Source of the DNA: a virus
Taxonomy: Duplodnaviria > Heunggongvirae > Uroviricota > Caudoviricetes
Strand: one strand, 5' to 3'
Length of the DNA stretch: 19,034 nt
IMG/VR virus record: IMGVR_UViG_2740892047_000005
In this document: piece after piece, positions 1 to 11,523 of the stretch
Position numbering within the stretch: the stretch's first letter is position 1
Layout of the letters: the number at the start of each line of letters is the position of its first letter
The notes under the pieces: generated by a model
Seen by the model: the letters and a program-made list of their open reading frames with translations, nothing else
Database searches by the model: none
Told to the model about the DNA's origin: nothing
Made by a program: the position numbers and the translations under genes

Positions 1-484
1 GACGGGCACACTGAATCATGGCTTTATGCCGTAACATCCGTTTGGGATGCGACTGCCACGGCCCAGTGATTTCTCTGCCTTCGCGGGTTTTGAATGGTTC
101 GCGGCGGCATTCATCCATCCACTCGGTAACGCAGATCGGATGATTACGGTCCTTGCGGTAAATCCGGCATGTACAGGATTCATTGTCCTGCTCAAAGTCC
201 ATGCCATCAAACTGCTGGTTTTCATTGATGATGCGGGACCAGCCATCAACGCCCACCACCGGAACGATGCCATTCTGCTTATCAGGAAAGGCGTAAATTT
301 CTTTCGTCCACGGATTAAGGCCGTACTGGTTGGCAACGATCAACAATGCGATGAACTGCGCATCGCTGGCATCACCTTTAAATGCCGTCTGGCGAAGAGT
401 GGTGATCAGTTCCTGTGGGTCGACAGAATCCATGCCGACACGTTCAGCCAGCTTCCCTGCCAGCGTTGCGAGTGCAGTACTCAT
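1..484 (-). CDS. bet: Recombination protein Bet (single-strand annealing protein), 5' part only; gene runs off the window start
   Basis: Reverse-complement from 484 reads ATG AGT ACT GCA CTC... = MSTALATLAGKLAERVGMDSVDPQELITTLRQTAFKGDASDAQFIALLIVANQYGLNPW..., matching lambda Bet N-terminus as I recall it. Start codon sits 5 nt after the gam stop. Not in the ORF track because its stop lies outside the window. Confidence 0.9.
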   Translation of the reverse strand, partial: MSTALATLAGKLAERVGMDSVDPQELITTLRQTAFKGDASDAQFIALLIVANQYGLNPWTKEIYAFPDKQNGIVPVVGVDGWSRIINENQQFDGMDFEQDNESCTCRIYRKDRNHPICVTEWMDECRREPFKTREGREITGPWQSHPKRMLRHKAMIQCAR

Positions 485-489
485 TCGTT

Positions 490-786
490 TTATACCTCTG
501 AATCAATATCAACCTGGTGGTGAGCAATGGTTTCAACCATGTACCGGATGTGTTCTGCCATGCGCTCCTGAAACTCAACATCGTCATCAAACGCACGGGT
601 AATGGCTTTTTTGCTGGCCCCGTGGCGTTGCAAATGATCGATGCAGAGTGATTCAAACAGGTGCTGGGACAGCCCCTTTTCCATGTCGTCTGCCAGTTCT
701 GCCTCTTTCTCTTCACGGGCGATTTGCTGGTAGTGACGTGCCCAGCTCTGAGCCTCAAGACGATCCTGAATGTAATAAGCGTTCAT
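490..786 (-). CDS. gam: Host-nuclease (RecBCD) inhibitor Gam, short form, 98 aa
   Basis: ORF track protein [21 protein letters not shown]...[10 protein letters not shown] matches lambda Gam from memory. SD-like AGGAG (rc of ctcct) just upstream of the ATG at 786. Confidence 0.93.
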
Positions 787-861
787 GGCTGAACTCCTGA
801 AAATGGCTGTGAAACTATTGCCCGGGAAATGCCAGGCCGATTAGGAAAACAGGAAAGGGGA

Positions 862-1068
862 TTAGTGATTCAGGCCGTTGCCGCGTCCGTCGAGAAAAAC
901 TTCCACGAGCAAGTCACGGGTATAAGTGCGCTCGATGCCGCGATGCAGATAAAGCCGTCCGCGTAAATTAGCTGATGCAGTCCAGGTACCATCTTTGTGT
1001 TTGACCAGCATTCCTGGCATGACCGCACCGCGATTAACGGTCTGCGTTCCGTAATGTTGATGAACCAT
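862..1068 (-). CDS. Small hypothetical protein (68 aa) in the kil/cIII position of the pL operon
   Basis: Intact ORF with a strong RBS (GCAGGAGTTTTT-ATG on the minus strand, from rc of 1069-1080). Placed between gam and the putative pL. I do not recognise the sequence as lambda Kil or CIII, so function is inferred from position only. Confidence 0.5.
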   Translation of the reverse strand: MVHQHYGTQTVNRGAVMPGMLVKHKDGTWTASANLRGRLYLHRGIERTYTRDLLVEVFLDGRGNGLNH

Positions 1069-1336
1069 AAAAACTCCTGCCCGTAAGCTGGGCTGCTGAA
1101 CAAATGAGGGGTTGCGCAGTATCTGGCGGTGGATGGCCGCCGGTTGTCATAACTAAGCCGCCTCGTTGAAGCGACTAAGGTATGAAATGTTGAGTTGATT
1201 TCAGCTGGTCACACCGACGTTCACGCGTCCGTTTCATCCCTCGCACTCCCCGAAGCCTGCTGAAATTCAAGCTGCGGATCTAAGCGGTCATCGCAACGGT
1301 GAATCAGGTGGTTGCCGTATCGTTGCGTTGTTGCGA

Positions 1337-1385
1337 TATGGTGATAATAGCTATTGCTATTGGTGATATCAATACTTATTGCTAT
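1337..1385 (-). promoter_or_regulatory. Candidate pL promoter with two operators (OL1 1347-1360, OL2 1372-1385)
   Basis: On the minus strand: -35 TTGATA (plus 1367-1372), 17-bp spacer, -10 TATTAT (plus 1344-1349). Two 14-bp sites, ATAGCTATTGCTAT (1347-1360, near-palindrome ATAGC-N4-GCTAT) and ATACTTATTGCTAT (1372-1385), are 25 bp apart and share the motif of the OR sites. Seen directly in sequence; function is inferred. Confidence 0.45.
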
Positions 1386-1510
1386 TAGTTGATGTGTTTT
1401 GATATTAAATGTTTGATAGCAAAAAGAATTAATTTTGTGACTTGAATCGCATAGCGATAACTGAAGTGAGGTGTGGTGGTTTTTTGGACGGTATGAGTTA
1501 TGAGGGGGAG

Positions 1511-1538
1511 GAAAAGAAAACCCGGCGCGGTTGCCGGG
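1511..1538 (-). terminator. Rho-independent terminator after the lipoprotein gene
   Basis: Hairpin cccggcgcggttgccggg (1521-1538). On the minus strand it is followed by a U-rich tract (complement of gaaaagaaaa, 1511-1520), immediately downstream of the lipoprotein stop at 1547. Confidence 0.5.
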
Positions 1539-1546
1539 TATGATTA

Positions 1547-1927
1547 TCAGTCAGCCCAACCTGATTTCGAGTTTATTTGGGTTTCTGACATTGTGTATTT
1601 CTTAATCGTGTCATCGTCAAAAAGAATAGTAAGTTCTTTTTTCGTACCGTTCGTTCCATTATGGAATAATCCATAGAATGGAATAAAAGTGGTGCCATTA
1701 ACTTTTACTTTTGCAAAGGCGTACTTCCAGATCTCGTTTCCACTGTCAGTATATGAAACAGCATCAGGAGAACCAAAGTAAGATTTAACCTCATTCTTGG
1801 TTGTTTTACCTTCCTGAAGTTTAGACTGGACACTAATTTCAGTTTCATTTTTGAGTTGCTGGTTGCCTGAAGAAGCACACCCAGCCAATAGAGATGCCAT
1901 CATGGCAGCGATTAGGATTTTTCTCAT
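1547..1927 (-). CDS. Lipoprotein (126 aa) with signal peptide and lipobox LLAGC; AT-rich moron between OL and cI (rexAB position)
   Basis: N-terminus MRKILIAAMMASLLAGC has a signal peptidase II lipobox. The mature part is S/T/N/K-rich and reminiscent of small BamE/OmlA-like lipoproteins (not verified). Lies 229 bp downstream of cI on the same strand, with a terminator after it. Confidence 0.8.
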   Translation of the reverse strand: MRKILIAAMMASLLAGCASSGNQQLKNETEISVQSKLQEGKTTKNEVKSYFGSPDAVSYTDSGNEIWKYAFAKVKVNGTTFIPFYGLFHNGTNGTKKELTILFDDDTIKKYTMSETQINSKSGWAD

Positions 1928-2156
1928 TTTATGTTTCCATTCATTATAATCAGAAACATCTTAACATAATGATTCGAAATAAAAACCGCTACGAGATAGG
2001 GGGACATTTTGCTGACAGTAGCAACAAATCTCAGCTAACAACGAGAATATTTACTGAAATATGCAAACAGATTTGGCGTTCTTATAGAGAATTTAGTGCA
2101 ATATCTAATCCGAGTGGTATAAACCTTAACCTTCGCTCCCTTAAGTCGTAGATAAA

Positions 2157-2849
2157 TTAACCATGCTTCCTGTACGTCTGCGGCATGCTTCCAATGACCT
2201 TACCGAATATGAACACCCGGTTCATCTCGTCTTTCTCGATCGGGTCCCACGGCGAGTAGCTCTTGTTATCAGAGATAACCAGCAGCTTATCCTTCATCAT
2301 TTGAAGACGTTTTACATGGGCAGTGTCGTCGTACAGAAACGCATAGATGCCATCACCGTCGAAAGATTTAACAGTGATATCAACGAACAGCAGGTCACCT
2401 GGTTCGATCGTCCCTGACATGCTGTCACCGCGCACGTTAATAATGCGGATATTTTCCGCCTTCCTGCCATCGAACATGTGACGAGCATCGTCAAACGAGT
2501 ACTCAACCGAGCGTAGAACTTCCACAAACTCACGGTTGATGACACCCGGTCCGGCACTGACTTCTATATCAAGAACGTCAATCTTGAAGTATTTTGAATG
2601 GCTGACAGCAGGCTTCCCTGATTGTTGACCGTCATTTCTCATCGGGCCTATGCCTGATGAGAGCCATTCTGTTCGAACACCCAATGCATTAGCTATTTCA
2701 ACAATTTTTGTTGAGCCGCGCGCGTTGCCGCTTGTCAGTCTCCAGATTGTGGGTTGAGCTACGCCAGACGCCTTTGCAAGAGCGCCTTGAGACATTCCAG
2801 ATTGTTCCATCGCTAGGTTTAAGCGATCAGCAAGAGTTTCTTTTTTCAT
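2157..2849 (-). CDS. cI: CI-type prophage repressor (N-terminal HTH + C-terminal S24/LexA-like autopeptidase), 230 aa
   Basis: HTH segment SQGALAKASGVAQPTIWRL. S24 motifs: Ala-Gly cleavage-site-like VSAGPG, catalytic Ser in RGDSMSG, Lys in HVKRL. Start set at ATG 2849 (MKKETLADRL...) because the upstream ATG at 2885 lies inside the operator array. The PRM-like promoter implies a near-leaderless mRNA, as for lambda cI. Confidence 0.88.
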   Translation of the reverse strand: MKKETLADRLNLAMEQSGMSQGALAKASGVAQPTIWRLTSGNARGSTKIVEIANALGVRTEWLSSGIGPMRNDGQQSGKPAVSHSKYFKIDVLDIEVSAGPGVINREFVEVLRSVEYSFDDARHMFDGRKAENIRIINVRGDSMSGTIEPGDLLFVDITVKSFDGDGIYAFLYDDTAHVKRLQMMKDKLLVISDNKSYSPWDPIEKDEMNRVFIFGKVIGSMPQTYRKHG

Positions 2850-2858
2850 AAGTTTTAA

Positions 2859-2928
2859 TTTATACGCTTGCGTATTGATGGTCAAAACACGTTTTGCTAT
2901 TGCTTGGATTAATACGCATTGCTATTAT
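2859..2928. promoter_or_regulatory. OR region: three 14-bp operators at 25-bp spacing with divergent PRM (to cI) and PR (to cro)
   Basis: OR3 ATACGCTTGCGTAT (2862-2875, perfect palindrome), OR2 ACACGTTTTGCTAT (2887-2900), OR1 ATACGCATTGCTAT (2912-2925). PR: -35 TTGCTT (2900-2905), 17-bp spacer, -10 TATTAT (2923-2928), overlapping OR2 and OR1. PRM on minus: -35 TTGACC (rc of 2880-2885), -10 TATAAA (rc of 2859-2864), overlapping OR3. Confidence 0.55.
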
Positions 2929-2959
2929 TCATTCATTTCAATACCAATAGGAATTGATA

Positions 2960-3187
2960 ATGACAAATCAAACCATTCAACTCGCAATCAGTATTACAGG
3001 TAGTCAAAAACGACTGGCAGATCTATGCGGTGTAGCCCAACCCACAGTTTGGCGTTGGCTACACGGTGGCGGAATTGATGCCCGCTATGTAATGAAAATT
3101 GTCTCAGCCACTGGTGGAAAGATTAAACCAGCAGATATTCGTCCCGACCTCGCACCATTGTTTAACGCGAGTAATTCTGCCGCCTAA
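2960..3187 (+). CDS. cro: Cro-like HTH regulator (YdaS/DUF1019-like), 75 aa
   Basis: ORF track 2954..3187; preferred start is ATG 2960 (MTNQTIQLAISITGSQKRLADLCGVAQPTVWRWL...) with SD TAGGA at 2948-2952. Divergent from cI across the operator array. HTH resembles YdaS-type Cro analogues (from memory). Confidence 0.8.
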   Translation: MTNQTIQLAISITGSQKRLADLCGVAQPTVWRWLHGGGIDARYVMKIVSATGGKIKPADIRPDLAPLFNASNSAA

Positions 3188-3211
3188 ACTGCGGCGTTAA
3201 CTGATAAGGCA

Positions 3212-3757
3212 ATGACTATGCAACCACTTACATACCAACAGACTAGCGGATTTAGCCCGACTGCGGTGATAAATCGTTCTCAAACAAAACAGGCGCCAGG
3301 CCACGAAAAAATCCGTGATGCCGTTCGCGCCTGGTCGGCTGCAGATAATCAGGATGTTGTTGCCGCACTCATTGTGAATGAGTATCGGGAGCAGGGCGGC
3401 GGCACCATCGATTTCCCTGATGATGTCAGCCGTGCACGCCAGAAGCTGTTCCGCTTCCTCGATAACAAATTCGATTCTGAAAAATACCGAAATAACGTGC
3501 GTGAACTGACCCCGGCAATTCTGGCGGTACTACCGCTGGAATATCGCGGCCACCTGGTTGAGCAGGATAGCTACATGGCTCGGCTGGCTGAAATGGAAAA
3601 GGAACTCAGTGAGGCAAAACAGGCTGTCATTCTCAACGCACCACGCCACCAGAAACTGAAGGAGATGAGTGAAGGCATTGTGTCGATGTTTCGTGTGGAC
3701 CCGGATTTGGCTGGTCCACTGATGGCGATGGTCACCACCATGCTGGGGGCAATATGA
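3212..3757 (+). CDS. YdaT-like protein (CII-position regulator of Rac-type immunity regions), 181 aa
   Basis: Segments IVNEYREQGGGTIDFP and RELTPAILAVLPLEYRGHL resemble E. coli Rac YdaT as I recall it. Immediately downstream of the cro-like gene and upstream of O. Confidence 0.75.
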   Translation: MTMQPLTYQQTSGFSPTAVINRSQTKQAPGHEKIRDAVRAWSAADNQDVVAALIVNEYREQGGGTIDFPDDVSRARQKLFRFLDNKFDSEKYRNNVRELTPAILAVLPLEYRGHLVEQDSYMARLAEMEKELSEAKQAVILNAPRHQKLKEMSEGIVSMFRVDPDLAGPLMAMVTTMLGAI

Positions 3758-3843
3758 CAGGTTCGGAAATGGCGAAAGCCGGTCTGCGCGAACAGAACCG
3801 ACTTTCAGGTGCAAATCGTAACACACTCATTGCGGGAGGAATT

Positions 3844-4773
3844 ATGGCAAACACTGCTGAGATATTCAATTTTCCAGTGCCGGATGTGGCACAAAAGGAG
3901 CGGCGCGTGGCAGATCTCGACGATGGTTATACGCGCATTGCAAATGAGTTGCTGGAAGCTGTGATGCTGGCCGGATTAACACAGCACCAGCTTCTGGTCT
4001 TCCTGGCTGTCATGCGCAAAACATATGGCTTTAATAAAAGACTGGATTGGGTGAGCAACGAGCAACTTTCCGAATTGACCGGGATATTGCCGCACAAGTG
4101 TTCTGCTGCAAAAAGCGTTCTGGTAAAGCGTGGGATTCTTATTCAGAGCGGGCGAAATATCGGCATTAATAATGTGGTCAGTGAATGGTCAACATTACCC
4201 GAATCAGGTAAGAAAAATAAAGTTTACCTGAAAGAGGTAAATTTACCTGAATCAGGTAAAAAAAGTTTACCCAAATCAGGTAAAGGCGTTTACCCGAATC
4301 AGGTAAACACAAAAGACAAACTAACAAAAGACAATATAAAACCTTTTTCGTCCGAGAATTCTGGCGAATCCTCTGACCAGCCAGAAAACGACCTTCCTGT
4401 GGTGAAACCGGATGCTGCAATTCAGAGTGGCAGCAAGTGGGGGACAGCAGAAGACCTGACCGCCGCAGAGTGGATGTTTGACATGGTGAAGACCATCGCG
4501 CCATCAGCCAGAAAACCGAATTTTGCAGGGTGGGCTAACGATATCCGCCTGATGCGTGAACGTGACGGACGTAACCACCGCGAAATGTGCGTGCTGTTCC
4601 GCTGGGCATGCCAGGACAACTTCTGGTCCGGTAACGTGTTGTGTCCGGCCAAACTCCGCGACAAGTGGACACAGCTCGAAATCAACCGAAACAAGCAGCA
4701 GGCTGGCGTGACAGCCGGCAAACCAAAACTCGATCTGACGAATACTGACTGGATTTACGGGGTGGAGCTATGA
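3844..4773 (+). CDS. O: Replication initiator protein O (lambda-type), 309 aa
   Basis: From ATG 3844 (SD GGGAGGA at 3834-3840): MANTAEIFNF...RRVADLDDGYTRIANELLEA...; C-terminal half AEWMFDMVKTIAPSARKPNFAGWANDIRLMRERDGRNHREMCVLFRWACQDNFWSGNVL... matches lambda O from memory. The ORF track extends it upstream to 3754, overlapping the YdaT-like gene. Confidence 0.92.
   Translation: MANTAEIFNFPVPDVAQKERRVADLDDGYTRIANELLEAVMLAGLTQHQLLVFLAVMRKTYGFNKRLDWVSNEQLSELTGILPHKCSAAKSVLVKRGILIQSGRNIGINNVVSEWSTLPESGKKNKVYLKEVNLPESGKKSLPKSGKGVYPNQVNTKDKLTKDNIKPFSSENSGESSDQPENDLPVVKPDAAIQSGSKWGTAEDLTAAEWMFDMVKTIAPSARKPNFAGWANDIRLMRERDGRNHREMCVLFRWACQDNFWSGNVLCPAKLRDKWTQLEINRNKQQAGVTAGKPKLDLTNTDWIYGVEL
4196..4350. 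repeat. Origin of replication inside O: iterons (4196-4306) plus AT-rich unwinding region (4307-4350)
   Basis: Direct repeats ttacccgaatcaggtaa (4196), tttacctgaaagaggtaa (4223, degenerate), tttacctgaatcaggtaa (4242), tttacccaaatcaggtaa (4266), tttacccgaatcaggtaa (4289), followed by acacaaaagacaaactaacaaaagacaatataaaacc. Same arrangement as ori-lambda inside O. Confidence 0.8.
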
Positions 4774-5471
4774 AAAACATCGCCGCACAGATGATTAATT
4801 TTGACCGTGAGCAGATGCGCCGGATCGCCAACAACATGCCGGAACAGTACGACGAAAAGCCGCAGGTACAGCAGGTGGCGCAGATAATCAACGGTGTATT
4901 CAGCCAGTTACTGGCAACTTTCCCGGCTAGCCTGGCTAATCGTGACCAGAACGAACTGAACGAAATCCGCCGCCAGTGGGTTCTGGCTTTCCGGGAAAAC
5001 GGGATCACCACGATGGAACAGGTGAGCGCCGGAATGCGTATCGCCCGTCGGCAGAGTAGACCATTCCTGCCATCACCTGGGCAGTTTGTCGCCTGGTGCC
5101 GGGAAGAAGCATCCGTTAACGCCGGGCTGCCAAACGTCAGCGAGCTGGTTGATATGGTTTACGAGTATTGCCGGAAGCGTGGCCTGTATCCGGACGCAGA
5201 GTCTTATCCATGGAAATCAAACGCGCACTACTGGCTGGTTACCAACCTGTACCAGAACATGCGGGCCAATGCGCTGACTGACGCGGAATTACGGCGTAAG
5301 GCTGCCGATGAGCTGACCTGTATGACCGCGCGAATTAACCGTGGTGAGGCGATACCTGAACCAGTAAAACAACTTCCTGTCATGGGCGGTAGACCTCTAA
5401 ATCGTGCACAGTCTTTGGCGAAGATCGCAGAAATCAAAGCTAAGTTCGGACTGAAAGGAGCAAGTGTATGA
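4770..5471 (+). CDS. P: Replication protein P (DnaB helicase loader), 233 aa
   Basis: MKNIAAQMINFDREQMRRIANNMPEQYDEKPQVQQVAQIINGVFSQLL... matches lambda P essentially throughout (from memory). Start overlaps the O stop (ATGA). Confidence 0.95.
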   Translation: MKNIAAQMINFDREQMRRIANNMPEQYDEKPQVQQVAQIINGVFSQLLATFPASLANRDQNELNEIRRQWVLAFRENGITTMEQVSAGMRIARRQSRPFLPSPGQFVAWCREEASVNAGLPNVSELVDMVYEYCRKRGLYPDAESYPWKSNAHYWLVTNLYQNMRANALTDAELRRKAADELTCMTARINRGEAIPEPVKQLPVMGGRPLNRAQSLAKIAEIKAKFGLKGASV

Positions 5472-5620
5472 CGGGCAAAGAGGCAATTATTCATTGTTTG
5501 GGAATGCATAAGCGTTTCAATGCGCTAGACGTCGCTGCGACAACAGGAGTAACAATAACCAGCATAAATCAGGTGACTAGAGAGTCAAAATTTTCGTCAT
5601 TGATGGTTTGCTTCAGGTAA
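5468..5620 (+). pseudogene. ren: ren remnant: first ~35 codons of lambda-like Ren, then unrelated sequence and an early stop (50 aa)
   Basis: Hand translation from ATG 5468 (overlapping the P stop): MTGKEAIIHCLGMHKRFNALDVAATTGVTITSINQ then VTRESKFSSLMVCFR*. Lambda Ren starts MTGKEAIIHYLGTHNSFCAPDVAALTGATVTSINQAAAKMARAG... (from memory). Divergence coincides with the start of AT-rich DNA near 5573. Confidence 0.6.
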
Positions 5621-5818
5621 ATTAGCACTAAAAAAATACCTAGTTAGAAGTACCTCAATCTATATCTATTGTTATCAATGAGAGCCGGTAGAACTCGACG
5701 ATAAAGCTGGTACATCATCATCCTCAAACTTGTATAATCAGAGTCCTAAAACCGGCAATATAACTACGCTGTTGCTTCAGAATATAATGGTGAATCGTAT
5801 AATGATGTTATGAATATA

Positions 5819-6796
5819 TTAAATTGCAGGATCTTTTCCAACGGCAAGGAAAGGTTCTTGGTCTAGTGCAGTAAACGAAGCTTCGTTATTAAGCAAACGA
5901 ATAAAATATAATTTTTGTCTTTTGGTGGATAACTCAATTAACCCTGCTTGATTTATAATTATATTTCTTCCTAATATTGGGAAGTTTTGTATTAAACGCT
6001 GAATGTTAGCGATGGTTATAGTTCCGCTTTTTATTAGAGAACTGTTTGCTGTTGTAGCTAGTTTACGCATAAAATTTCTATTTTTATGCATATCATCAAA
6101 TATACCAAGTGGGTTTTGCAAGTTAGAAGTATCTAGGATATTCAATCCAATTATATGCGGTGTCGCTGTTGCTGCTAAATTATTAATTATTTGCTCGAGT
6201 CCATATACTCGCTCTAATAAGTTAATGTTTAAAGCATAGTATTTATTATTAAAATAAAAGAAATCAACATTTCCGTTTATATCAATACTGTCATGGTTAA
6301 CTTCGTCTAGTGTTCGTCCATTGGCAGAGAAATAGGATAGTCTTGTTTTTTTATGCAAAGATATTGGGTATTTATGTTGATAAACTACAACTCCATTACC
6401 TTGCCCATCGCAGAGATAGTATACAATTCCTTTAACAGAAGATAAGTCTTGCTGTTTGAAATCAAAATCAGGAGGGGTGTTATTAACTCCGAAATTAAGT
6501 ACATCTGGCATTTTTGCTAGAGCATCTGGGAGATGGTTTATTACATTATAATCATATTCGTAAACTTGTTTATCTCTATTTAGAAGGGAGGATACCAACG
6601 GCAAAAAGTTTTGACCAGCATTAGGGGCGATAACATCACGTTTAAGTGATTTGCTAAAAGATTGGGTTAATTTTTTTTCTGCACCAGGTTCTAATGCTAC
6701 TCGGTATATTTGTGTTATCCCTTTGTGTTCTGCAACGAAAAAGGCTTCACCAGAGATGTTGGCAGAATTTAAGATGTTATCTATTGCTGTAAACAT
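5819..6796 (-). CDS. Hypothetical 325-aa soluble protein, second gene of the AT-rich two-gene cassette; candidate defence effector (possibly KwaB/DUF4868-like, unverified)
   Basis: Intact ORF with RBS GAGGG 4 nt before ATG 6796. Starts 15 bp after the stop of the upstream membrane-protein gene on the same strand. No Walker A, no GS...DxD nucleotidyltransferase motif and no obvious nuclease motif seen by eye. N/I/L/K-rich, consistent with low-GC origin. Confidence 0.8.
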   Translation of the reverse strand: MFTAIDNILNSANISGEAFFVAEHKGITQIYRVALEPGAEKKLTQSFSKSLKRDVIAPNAGQNFLPLVSSLLNRDKQVYEYDYNVINHLPDALAKMPDVLNFGVNNTPPDFDFKQQDLSSVKGIVYYLCDGQGNGVVVYQHKYPISLHKKTRLSYFSANGRTLDEVNHDSIDINGNVDFFYFNNKYYALNINLLERVYGLEQIINNLAATATPHIIGLNILDTSNLQNPLGIFDDMHKNRNFMRKLATTANSSLIKSGTITIANIQRLIQNFPILGRNIIINQAGLIELSTKRQKLYFIRLLNNEASFTALDQEPFLAVGKDPAI

Positions 6797-6811
6797 AATG
6801 CCCTCATTATA

Positions 6812-7411
6812 TTAAACAATCTTTGCGAGACAAGTGTCATTATCTATTTTTATATATTTTATAGTGCTTTTATTATTTATTTCTCCACGACATATTATCA
6901 CAAATTCTTTTTTTCCGCGGTCGTTAATATTCGCTCTAAAAATTCTGAACCCTAATAGTGCAAGTGACGGATTTGAATAAAATCGATTTGTTTTAACATA
7001 AATCATTCCGATTGCAATTATCATTATTAATAGATTCAACATTGTTCGTTTGCTATTTACATCAGTAAAGACTAGTGGCATGACATAAGTTGTCAGGAAC
7101 TCTAAATGTTCATGGCTCTCGTTTTTTACGTCGGAAACAGTACATGCGACAGACCAACCAGAGTTAAATGATAAAAACAAATATAAAAATATAAAAAAAC
7201 CTGCCACCATCATTATAAAACTAAATAAAAAAACTATATTTTTGGGTGTGATTTTTGAAATGAATATAGCAAAGTCTTTATTGTTATAAGTTGAAATTAT
7301 AGTAAATATATTTTTATCATATGACATTATAAATAGAGAAACAAATAATAGCCATAGAGATAATATATATAGCGCATACTTTAAAGCTGTTCTATTTTTC
7401 ATGTTTTTCAT
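6812..7411 (-). CDS. Predicted multi-pass inner-membrane protein (about 4 TM helices), first gene of the AT-rich cassette; candidate sensor/membrane component (possibly KwaA-like, unverified)
   Basis: Hydrophobic segments ALKYALYILSLWLLFVSLFIMSY, IVFLFSFIMMVAGFFIFLYLFLSF, LEFLTTYVMPLVF, MLNLLIMIIAIGMIYV, then a ~55-aa charged C-terminal tail. Start uncertain: ATG 7411 (MKNMKNRT...), ATG 7402 or GTG 7426 (ORF track). Confidence 0.75.
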   Translation of the reverse strand: MKNMKNRTALKYALYILSLWLLFVSLFIMSYDKNIFTIISTYNNKDFAIFISKITPKNIVFLFSFIMMVAGFFIFLYLFLSFNSGWSVACTVSDVKNESHEHLEFLTTYVMPLVFTDVNSKRTMLNLLIMIIAIGMIYVKTNRFYSNPSLALLGFRIFRANINDRGKKEFVIICRGEINNKSTIKYIKIDNDTCLAKIV

Positions 7412-8362
7412 CTCTTGGGGAAACACCGTTTTGATACCGTTGCCAGCGAATATAACACTTTAATTAATTACGGTAAGTAACTTATAACAGTCAATAGATG
7501 TAAATAGAGATGGTGTGGAATCATTACTTGATGCTTTGGCACGCTACCGCCACAAACTCGTTGTGGTGAGTCTGTGGTATGTAGTCAAAACATAGATTTG
7601 CTGTTGTAATGTTACACCTGCATGGGTAACAAAATCTAGTGCGATACACATAGCCACTGACCATCTATACTGGTTTAATATACAGCATTTTATGACGATT
7701 CTCAATTATGAAACTAACTATTTTACAACCAGTTATGGATATCTATGCTTTTATGTACTAAAAATTCTTTAGTTACAGATGTATTGATGACGAGAAATTG
7801 CTAAAGCAAGATGAGTAAGGAACTAAATCAATAAAGTGGGGGCGGGGGGAGTTCGAGTGGCTAGGAGCATAGCGCTTGATTACTTTTGGTGGTTGAAAAA
7901 TGTTCGGTTGGGTGTCGCTAGGTGACTAATAGCTAAATTGGGAGATATACATATATAATATGAAATAAATCCCCACTTAATGCTTGTGAAATATTTATGT
8001 GACAAGCGGGTGTTCTTATTGATATTAAAATTCAATAACAGTGAGTTTTTATTCTTTTCTAAGTTTTGTAAATTGTTCTCACAGAGAAGGTTTAATTGTA
8101 TGTGCCTATATTTTTTTCTAGTGAATATAATGTCGGAATATATTAATATTGGCATATTCAGCAATGACTTCAAATATTCTTGATTTTCGATAATCAACTC
8201 GCCATAATCTCGTTGCTGTCGGCCTGAACATCCGGCGGTGGGGTTGCGCTAAACGGGGACGTTTATGCGCACACACAATCCAAACTCTCTTCTCCCTTCA
8301 CAGATGCAGAAATGCACCTGCGATTTTTTGTATTCTGCGTTTTACCTCTACGGAGGTGAAGC

Positions 8363-8818
8363 GTGAACCTCCCACAAGATGGTATCAAATTGCATCGCGG
8401 TAACTTCACCGCTATCGGTCGGCAGATCCAGCCTTATCTGGAGGAGGGCAAATGCTTTCGCATGGTGCTTAAACCGTGGCGCGAGAGACGCAGTCTTTCC
8501 CAGAATGCACTCAGCCACATGTGGTACAGCGAAATCAGTGAATACCTCATCAGCAAGGGTAAAACGTTCGCCACTCCAGCTTGGGTAAAAGATGCTCTCA
8601 AACACACATATCTCGGTTATGAAACCAAAGACCTGGTTGATGTCGTAACCGGTGATATCACCACTATCCAGTCGTTACGCCATACCTCCGATCTTGATAC
8701 CGGAGAGATGTATGTCTTCCTGTGTAAGGTTGAAGCCTGGGCGATGAATATTGGCTGCCACCTGACTATTCCGCAGAGCTGCGAGTTCCAGCAGCTCCGC
8801 GACAAACAGGAGGCGTAA
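8363..8818 (+). CDS. ybcN: YbcN-like nin-region protein, 151 aa
   Basis: GTG start at 8363 with SD GGAGG (8352-8356). [58 protein letters not shown]... matches DLP12 YbcN as I recall it. First gene of a tightly coupled nin-type operon. Confidence 0.8.
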
Positions 8819-8988
8819 TGGCTACACCGCTTATTCGTGTCATGAACGGACACATCTACAGAGTACCAAATCGTCGTAAGCGTAAACCGGAGCTGAAGCC
8901 TTCCGAAATACCAACACTGCTCGGATATACCGCCAGCCTGGTTGATAAAAAATGGTTGCGACTGGCAGCAAGGAGGAATCATGGCTGA
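8818..8988 (+). CDS. ninE: NinE-like small protein, 56 aa
   Basis: Hand translation from ATG 8818 (overlaps the ybcN stop, TAATG): [56 protein letters not shown]. Basic and small, in the NinE position. Below the ORF-track length cut-off. Confidence 0.7.
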   Translation: MATPLIRVMNGHIYRVPNRRKRKPELKPSEIPTLLGYTASLVDKKWLRLAARRNHG

Positions 8989-10425: not shown

Positions 10426-11523
10426 TTAGAACTGGTAAACCAGACCTACAGCAACGATGTCATCAGTGCTTACACCGAGTGCTTTAGTGAAGTCATTTTT
10501 GTCAAGCAGGTTGATTTTGTAATCAACGAAAGTAGACATATTTTTGTTGAAGTAATAGGTTGCACCTACATCAACATATTTGACTAAGTCCTGATCGCCC
10601 CATACTCCAAGATCCTTACCTTTAGATTGCAGGTAAGCAACGGACGGACGCAGACCGAAATCGAACTGATATTGTGCAACAGCTTCGAAGTTTTGAGCTT
10701 TATTAGCAACGAAGTGATCAGCAAATACAGTCATATTCTGGGTTTCAGAATAGGTAGTGGCCAGGTAAATGTTGTTAGCGTCATATTTCAGACCTGCGGC
10801 CCAAACTTCTGCATTTTTACCGGAAGCAAATACTTCAGGAAGAACTTTCCCTGCATTAACTTGAGTGTCGGTACGATCAGATTTTGCATAAGTTGCACCG
10901 ATACCGAATCCTTCGTATTCATAGGTAGCAGAGAAACCGAAGCCATCACCGTTACCTTCGGTGTAGTTATCGAAATCGCTACGATCGTTTTTGCCTTGGT
11001 ACTGAGCAGCAAAGTTCAGACCATCAACCAGGCCAAAGAAGTCGTTGTTACGATAGGTTGCAACACCAGTGGTGCGACCAGTCATGAACACATCTGTTTG
11101 GGTCCAGGTATCGCCACCGAATTCTGGCAGAACGTCAGTCCACGCACCGATGTCGTATGCTACACCGTAGTTACGGCCGTAATCGATGGAGCCGTAGTCA
11201 CCGAATTTCAGGCCAGCGAAGGCAAGACGGGTTTTATCTTTGGAGGAACCTTGAGATTCAGCGCGGTTGCCTTTGAATTCATATTCCCACTGACCGAAAC
11301 CAGTCAGTTGATCGTTGATTTGGGTTTCACCTTTGAAGCCAAGACGGGCATAAGTAGTATCACCATCATCTGCATCATTAGAGGAGAAGTAGTGCTTAGC
11401 ATTAACTTTCCCGTACAGATCCAGCTTGTTACTGTCTTTATTATAAATTTCAGCTGCCTGAGCAGACATCGCCATCAGTACTGATGCAGCTACAGCAGAA
11501 ATTGCCACTGTTAATTTTTTCAT
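10426..11523 (-). CDS. nmpC: Outer-membrane general porin of the OmpC/OmpF/NmpC family, 365 aa, intact
   Basis: Signal peptide [23 protein letters not shown], then [24 protein letters not shown]... and C-terminal ...VAVGLVYQF (terminal Phe typical of beta-barrel OMPs). Convergent to Q, between Q and the lysis cassette, as nmpC is in DLP12. Confidence 0.93.

Follow-up and report, generated by a model that had tools for sequence, protein, structure and literature searches.

Gam and a divergent Kiwa cassette with a predicted LexA box in the early region of an Escherichia coli lambdoid prophage

The closest described relative of the locus reported here is the Kiwa system of Escherichia coli O55:H7 RM12579 (PDB 9mrg, 9mrx, 9mtn, 9nyu). 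Kiwa systems defend cells against phages and also against conjugation. In the published account of Kiwa (Zhang, Todeschini et al. 2025; PMC11785009), supercomplexes of KwaA and KwaB are activated where a phage attaches, the trigger being a membrane or attachment event that is sensed by KwaA and maps to tail fibres and membrane events, and incoming DNA is bound by KwaB, which stalls replication and late transcription. Lambda Gam is a ligand of KwaB that competes with DNA; it cuts Kiwa protection about 100-fold, and Kiwa is more effective against Gam-inactive lambda (PMC11785009). RecBCD in turn competes for Gam by titration, and protection survives with both present, an outcome called 'inhibitor partitioning' (PMC11785009). 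Here we describe a stretch of 19,034 nucleotides (IMG/VR record IMGVR_UViG_2740892047_000005, Caudoviricetes; the whole stretch is referred to as the window) that encodes both a Gam protein and a Kiwa cassette, kwaA and kwaB. The locus probably represents a standard Red operon with Gam and an acquired Kiwa cassette, linked modularly and wired to one activated RecA (RecA*) signal.

The resident cassette resembles the O55:H7 system in its two adjacent, co-oriented genes, in the make-up of their products (KwaA a membrane protein of about 196 residues, KwaB a DUF4868 protein of about 320 residues whose predicted fold agrees at template modelling (TM) scores of 0.66-0.72) and in a putative LexA box in the promoter upstream of kwaA. 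It differs in that its KwaB is only about 20% identical, its KwaA matches at an E-value of 1.6e-18, four of six contact residues differ in an uncertain alignment, and it resides in a lambdoid prophage, whereas the O55:H7 copy is in a chromosomal island. The box also lies about 265 nucleotides from kwaA, behind a conserved leader, compared with about 70 nucleotides in O55:H7. As in the partitioning of lambda Gam between RecBCD and Kiwa (PMC11785009), a Gam (here 96% identical to GamS), a Kiwa system and presumably the host RecBCD meet in one cell; in that published system Gam comes from the invader and Kiwa from the host, whereas in the present locus both are encoded by a single prophage, with a different predicted repressor for each. 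As far as it is cited in PMC11785009, BstA with its aba element (Owen et al. 2021) is a comparable case of a prophage with a defence and a potential neutraliser, from which the present locus differs in that its Gam inhibits RecBCD generally and is encoded in a different operon from the cassette, rather than being a specific element linked to it, and in that orthologous Kiwa prophages occur without Gam. Finally, the cassette resembles the cargo of the lambda P/ren-nin slot and the SOS-boxed accessory genes of phages (dinI-like) in occupying the slot after P with its own LexA-boxed promoter. Unlike these, it is a two-gene membrane-associated defence inserted in ren, and its predicted LexA box is part of the Kiwa cassette, accompanying it from genus to genus.

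Gam and the Kiwa cassette

The genes in question and the ends of the insertion that carries kwaA and kwaB are as follows.

490..786, minus strand: gam, a short (GamS-length) RecBCD inhibitor and DNA mimic (Pfam Gam; PDB 5mbv)
5819..6796, minus strand: kwaB, the DUF4868 DNA-binding effector of Kiwa (PADLOC, Pfam PF16162, predicted fold)
6812..7402, minus strand: kwaA, the membrane sensor of Kiwa (PADLOC, PDB 9mrg, Pfam PF28043, hydropathy)
5468..5620, plus strand: truncated ren with the left insertion junction at about 5574; codons 1-35 agree with Ren of E. coli TB4019
7706..8180, no strand assigned: AT-rich remainder of the insert, with the right junction at about 8180-8245, where backbone homology resumes

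Gam is a protein of 98 residues; Pfam Gam PF06064 covers 98 of 98 positions (E-value 6.6e-64), and 94 of the 98 residues are identical in lambda GamS (PDB 5mbv). In an identical record, the Prokaryotic Genome Annotation Pipeline (PGAP) places the gene in an exo-bet-gam-kil operon. The cassette stretch of the window used as query (5500-7900) has a 100% identical counterpart on the chromosome of E. coli DETEC-E480, whose PGAP annotation already names both Kiwa genes and Gam.

KwaB (325 residues) matches the PADLOC KwaB model PDLC00232 over its full length (E-value 7e-149) as well as Pfam KwaB PF16162 (3e-27), and a profile-profile comparison with the canonical clade (hhalign) gave a probability of 99.7. 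Its AlphaFold2 model (predicted local distance difference test score, pLDDT, 82.5) was searched with Foldseek, and the significant PDB fold matches were KwaB structures only (TM 0.66-0.72, 20% identity). KwaA matches PADLOC PDLC00220 across profile positions 1-197 of 198 (E-value 5e-88) and the PDB KwaA 9mrg (1.6e-18), and Pfam PF28043 is found on the identical gene. A hydropathy scan of KwaA gave three strong hydrophobic segments; a weaker fourth segment at about residues 97-115 was read by eye, so that a count of four transmembrane segments would come partly from homology. The genes run kwaA then kwaB, adjacent and co-oriented on the minus strand with a gap of 15 nucleotides. The extents of the hidden Markov models, the PGAP annotation and a conserved AAGAGA Shine-Dalgarno sequence place the kwaA start at the ATG at 7402, giving 196 residues, and these same three lines of evidence speak against a start at 7426, the GTG of the longest open reading frame. 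In one E. coli assembly with an identical KwaB, kwaA is called at only 89 residues (L028, 9716-9985), and the cassette may be decaying in some lysogens.

The cassette is a genuine Kiwa system of a divergent subtype, whose KwaB shares about 20% identity with the O55:H7 protein of solved structure. The subtype is not new, as PADLOC has models for it and PGAP names it. An initial annotation of the window had reported that the prophage encodes the RecBCD inhibitor Gam, which is confirmed on the minus strand at 490-786, and had suspected a Kiwa-like cassette whose family needed checking; apart from the contact residues considered below, the sequence and fold features tried agree on Kiwa. The cassette is thus present where that annotation had seen it, with an end at the kwaA ATG (7402) and not at 7426.

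The cassette differs sharply in composition from its surroundings, with a guanine-plus-cytosine (GC) content of 31.1% compared with 48.4% for the rest of the window. Identity to intact ren stops at ...ATAAATCAGG, at about 5574, and cassette DNA lies beyond codon 35. The O-P backbone of thousands of E. coli genomes matches the window up to 5573 and resumes at 8180-8245 (query 4427-4492). Elsewhere the same slot holds ren, ybcK, an anti-phage pair of a phosphoribosyltransferase (PRTase) and a NADAR protein, HEPN proteins, DUF4041, methyltransferases and others. As ren is truncated, the backbone is interrupted between 5573 and 8180-8245 and the content of the slot varies, the Kiwa cassette is a horizontally acquired cargo of about 2.6 kb that entered ren, in the promiscuous slot separating P from ybcN, and it is transcribed against the pR operon. 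The AT-rich stretch 7706-8264 is conserved solely among E. coli copies of the insertion and holds no annotated gene, and the GC content of 7403-8264 is about 36%. The open reading frame at 7880-8197 (105 residues, TTG start) had no Pfam or PADLOC match, and neither of the small open reading frames at 5468-5620 (past its ren-like start) and 8265-8366 had a Pfam match.

This cassette is rare: of 5426 complete E. coli genomes, only 4 carry it. No match to the cassette DNA, or to KwaB by tblastn, was found among 50,697 phage records. A first scan of species-representative genomes found no Kiwa cassette locus, and an aligned second scan gave nine loci.

Predicted control of gam and kwaAB

The elements that bear on the regulation of the two units are listed here, together with LexA boxes predicted at other Kiwa loci.

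1338..1387, no strand assigned: putative left operator region (oL/pL), a 50-nucleotide direct repeat 74% identical to 2878-2927, with repeated TTGCTATT motifs
2878..2927, no strand assigned: right operator region (oR) in the cI-cro gap, the repeat partner of 1338-1387
2157..2849, minus strand: CI-like repressor with a helix-turn-helix (HTH) domain and an S24 autopeptidase, of the RecA*-cleavable type (Pfam Peptidase_S24, E-value 1.5e-18; HTH_3)
7668..7687, minus strand: predicted LexA (SOS) box TGCTGTATATTAAACCAGTA, heterology index 2.4
7677..7705, minus strand: promoter-like site TTGAGA-17-TATATT with its -10 element inside the LexA box, 10 of 12 matches, -10 conserved in the alignment
7403..7667, minus strand: conserved 5' leader of the kwa operon, about 265 nucleotides, from an alignment of 11 loci
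Other Kiwa loci, predicted LexA boxes: L037 9325-9344, L039 2324-2343, L045 1326-1345, L048 1322-1341, L050 1327-1346

The translation of the CI-like repressor contains the Ala-Gly site (VSAGPG), the GDSM serine motif and VKRL. The paired repeats are likely the operators of this repressor. As the putative oL repeat matches the repeat of the cI-cro gap and lies upstream of kil-gam-bet-exo, between the BamE-like gene and kil, we infer that gam is under the control of the CI-like repressor.

The kwa operon appears to answer to a different repressor. A strict search for the LexA 20-mer with up to three mismatches missed the box at 7668-7687, which has five, all but one in central AT-rich positions, and a weighted heterology index was therefore used, with a set of 18 E. 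coli LexA sites as its training data (training range 0.1-9.4). A low heterology index is an accepted predictor of LexA binding (PMC12527982). With this index, the box was the only site in the window at or below 9, and 6e-5 sites scoring as well as it does would be expected by chance. It has the CTG-N10-CAG form and overlaps the -10 element of the only conserved promoter upstream of kwaA, and in the alignment of the window with ten orthologous loci it appears as an invariant CTGTA-ATTAAA-CAGT at the start of the leader. Every orthologous cassette of 81-100% identity with enough upstream sequence carries a box at the same place, with heterology indices of 1.0-4.5. The canonical Kiwa clade also has a predicted box (heterology index 1.2-3.4), 66-73 nucleotides upstream of kwaA and just before an extended -10 element, in five lineages (O55:H7, the Klebsiella/E. 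coli island type, Morganellaceae, Hafnia and Pantoea), where it is the best-conserved upstream element. A LexA box is thus predicted upstream of kwaA in two distant Kiwa clades and is absent from the account in PMC11785009, which makes no mention of SOS or LexA. Full-text literature searches for Kiwa with LexA or with 'SOS response' returned nothing relevant.

Between the box and kwaA, the leader contains the invariant blocks GTAAAATCAT, TGGCGGTAGCGTG and CCATCTCT amid otherwise variable DNA across the 11 aligned loci, and CCATCTCT can pair with the Shine-Dalgarno and start sequence AGAGATG. No Rfam family was matched at the gathering threshold (a weak chance match had an E-value of 0.73), the folding z-score of -1.26 was not significant, and the consensus fold had no covariation at the anti-Shine-Dalgarno helix. 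A structured RNA was dropped on these grounds, and the leader is retained as conserved sequence only.

In the non-E. coli prophages, a dinI-like gene lies divergently about 285 nucleotides upstream of the Kiwa box; the example at L025 8570-8803 (minus strand) has its own strong predicted LexA box at 8822-8841, and the same holds for L014, L016, L020, L021 and L023. The dinI-like identity is our reading of the sequence. With such a gene and its box beside a boxed Kiwa, that stretch of the nin region is predicted to hold two SOS-controlled units.

Linkage of Gam to Kiwa and alternative explanations

The assembly collection lists identical KwaB in 567 blocks. In all nine E. coli contexts with enough flanking sequence, kil-gam-RecT-YqaJ lies 4.3-5.6 kb beyond kwaB, and these nine prophages differ in packaging and head genes (HK97-type or lambda Nu1/GpA), Q type, integrase and attachment site. 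As this flank stays constant while packaging genes, Q, integrase and attachment site vary, we take the cassette to be carried within a conserved exo-to-rusA segment of the early region, which moves from one backbone to another by recombination. Gam is itself default content of the early-left operons of E. coli lambdoid phages, with gam present in 3166 of 5426 complete E. coli genomes (58%), and the resident Gam is 99% identical to the Gam of many phage records in which tblastn found no KwaB. The idea of a specialised resident allele was rejected on the strength of this identity.

Orthologous cassettes with 81-85% protein identity occupy the same slot by ydaT-O-P in Enterobacter, Klebsiella and Salmonella-type prophages and in IMG/VR contigs. 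No lambda Gam was found within 10 kb of these non-E. coli cassettes, whose prophages carry RecE (Exonuc_VIII and DUF3799) and RecT in place of Red and Gam. The canonical O55:H7 Kiwa is chromosomal, in an island near a fim recombinase and nan genes, with no Gam nearby. The absence of Gam from the non-E. coli loci had suggested that Kiwa prophages avoid it, an idea ruled out by the nine E. coli contexts, all of which have Gam; the difference follows the recombination module, RecET or Red. It follows that this Kiwa neither depends on Gam nor shuns it. Because gam is common in E. coli, orthologous cassettes occur without it, the slot is promiscuous and the Gam allele is ordinary, the simplest reading is modular linkage and no dedicated pair. 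The initial annotation had singled out the co-residence of Gam and Kiwa as notable; the frequency of gam, the promiscuous slot and the RecE/RecT orthologues without Gam leave a special association unsupported.

One alternative is that the two form a dedicated antidote pair, in which Gam is kept as self-immunity so that SOS-raised KwaB spares the prophage's own replicating DNA. The published binding and inhibition of KwaB by Gam (PMC11785009), the predicted co-induction of Gam and Kiwa by RecA* and the retention of both in every informative E. coli context are what this explanation would lead one to expect. Orthologous Kiwa prophages with the same LexA-boxed promoter nevertheless do without Gam, published Kiwa is activated at attachment sites and not by cytoplasmic DNA, and the Gam allele is 99% identical to that of phages in which this KwaB was not found. 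On this evidence, we consider a dedicated pair unlikely.

A second alternative turns on whether the resident KwaB would be sensitive to Gam at all. The six published DNA-contact residues of O55:H7 KwaB were mapped by profile-profile alignment, which at 20% identity may be off by a residue or two. In this uncertain alignment one of the six is identical (R233=R244) and one is conservative (R142 to K149); R167 falls opposite an invariant Asp (D172), a charge reversal, and the others are N134 to H141, D169 to N174 and K187 to N192. The commonest competitors of a lambdoid prophage are Gam-encoding lambdoid phages. If this Kiwa subtype were Gam-insensitive through a different KwaB channel, there would be no interplay between the two and the prophage could exclude such phages. 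The contact mapping points in this direction, as do the 19-20% identity of KwaB to the clade in which Gam sensitivity was tested and the prevalence of gam, present in 58% of E. coli genomes, by which a Gam-sensitive system would often be challenged. The overall KwaB fold is kept, however, further basic residues invariant in the subtype could line the channel, and the mapping may be shifted as stated; insensitivity appears improbable.

The initial annotation was right to tie Kiwa to Gam-type RecBCD inhibitors, as Gam binds and inhibits KwaB (PMC11785009), and of the two roles it offered for Gam, trigger or antagonist, the second agrees with the published loss of protection. The first, in which Gam triggers a Kiwa that senses RecBCD inhibition, has the suggestion of that annotation on its side and nothing in the window, and it is very improbable given that the published plaque assays have the opposite sign (Gam lowers protection, and Gam-inactive lambda is hit harder by Kiwa) and that the trigger has been traced to tail fibres and membrane events (PMC11785009).

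Several points weigh against modular linkage under a shared RecA* signal. The linkage in E. coli is perfect (nine of nine), and Gam may therefore be retained for a selective reason. LexA binding and SOS induction of kwaAB are predictions made from sequence with an index built on 18 sites, and no LexA box was found in relatives of 55-62% identity or in Vibrio Kiwa. Kiwa cloned with its native promoters protects without an SOS inducer (methods of PMC11785009), which means that repression is not tight or that infection itself induces kwaAB. Gam sensitivity is known from other Kiwa variants, and in the alignment used here two of six contacts appear to be kept, with R167 aligned to an invariant Asp.

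Prophage layout and proposed working

The remaining features of the early region are given below.

1..484, minus strand: 3' part of bet, which belongs to the Red operon and encodes a recombinase of the RecT family (annotated by PGAP as 'phage recombination protein Bet' in the identical record; Pfam RecT matches this gene at sibling loci)
862..1068, minus strand: kil, a KilR-type cell-division inhibitor in the leftward operon of gam (PGAP; Pfam KilR PF27398 on the same gene at sibling loci)
1547..1927, minus strand: BamE-like lipoprotein gene, separate cargo directly downstream of cI (Pfam BamE, E-value 1e-4, just under the family cut-off; PGAP name BamE)
2960..5471, plus strand: rightward early operon with cro/YdaS-like, YdaT-like and replication genes O and P (Pfam YdaT, Phage_rep_O, Phage_lambda_P; PGAP coordinates)

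In DETEC-E480, the matching segment is part of a seemingly complete lambdoid prophage integrated next to tRNA-Arg (argU), in the order int, exo-bet-gam-kil, the BamE-like gene, cI, cro, ydaT, O and P, followed by kwaB and kwaA on the opposite strand, ybcN-ninE-ybcO-rusA-ylcG, Q, a porin gene, and the lysis, terminase, head and tail genes. The genes described here thus make up the early region of what seems to be an intact lambdoid prophage of E. coli. No open reading frame of at least 50 codons that could encode an N-type antiterminator was found between the putative oL and kil (window 1069-1546).

In lambda, the position of the BamE-like gene downstream of cI is held by rexAB. The gene is probably a second cargo gene expressed in the lysogen. 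A terminator-like hairpin lies beside it at about 1505-1535; in sibling loci its slot holds a DUF6414 gene (L031) or an MqsA/SecB-like pair (L038), and L004, L008 and L009 carry homologues (41-43% identity) about 6 kb past kwaB. The porin gene (Porin_1, nmpC-like; 10426-11523, minus strand) separates Q from the lysis genes and is encoded on the strand opposite to them; a porin gene in that position is a known sort of lysogenic-conversion cargo of DLP12-type prophages.

For modular linkage under one RecA* signal, the following sequence of events is proposed. In an unstressed lysogen, the CI-like repressor would keep gam off while Kiwa is held at a LexA-limited basal level, and with Gam off and Kiwa at this level the prophage would not sabotage its own defence. 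On damage signalled by RecA*, LexA and the CI-like repressor would be cleaved together, so that Kiwa would rise as CI immunity falls and Gam would be made in the same cell. In the induced cell, Gam may dampen the action of both RecBCD and KwaB. Because Kiwa acts at entry sites, the genome of the induced phage is probably not among its targets, and Gam could add a safety margin; transcription from pR, antisense to the cassette, may be a further brake on kwaAB after induction. RecA loading that depends on RecBCD is blocked by Gam, and for this reason the Gam of an invading phage could also damp the SOS induction of kwaAB.

The bare co-residence of Gam and Kiwa adds little, as it follows from the mosaic construction of lambdoid phages and as both parts are ordinary and already annotated. 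It is the predicted wiring that matters, in which a defence system and its only published inhibitor are placed in one prophage under two repressors that would answer the same RecA* signal. We raise tentatively, as a possibility that is on balance doubtful, that Kiwa of Enterobacterales belongs to the SOS regulon, and that here RecA* lifts CI immunity, raises Kiwa as a membrane-level exclusion system that guards the induced cell and causes Gam to be made, shielding the prophage's own replicating DNA from KwaB and RecBCD. On this reading, with SOS induction of kwaAB damped by the Gam of an invader, part of the published dependence of Kiwa on Gam and RecBCD could be transcriptional, beyond 'inhibitor partitioning'. 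If the predicted wiring is confirmed, Kiwa would be a DNA-damage-inducible defence, its presence in a temperate phage would have a rationale in an exclusion that rises as repressor immunity drops, and the triangle of Kiwa, RecBCD and Gam would gain a regulatory reading.

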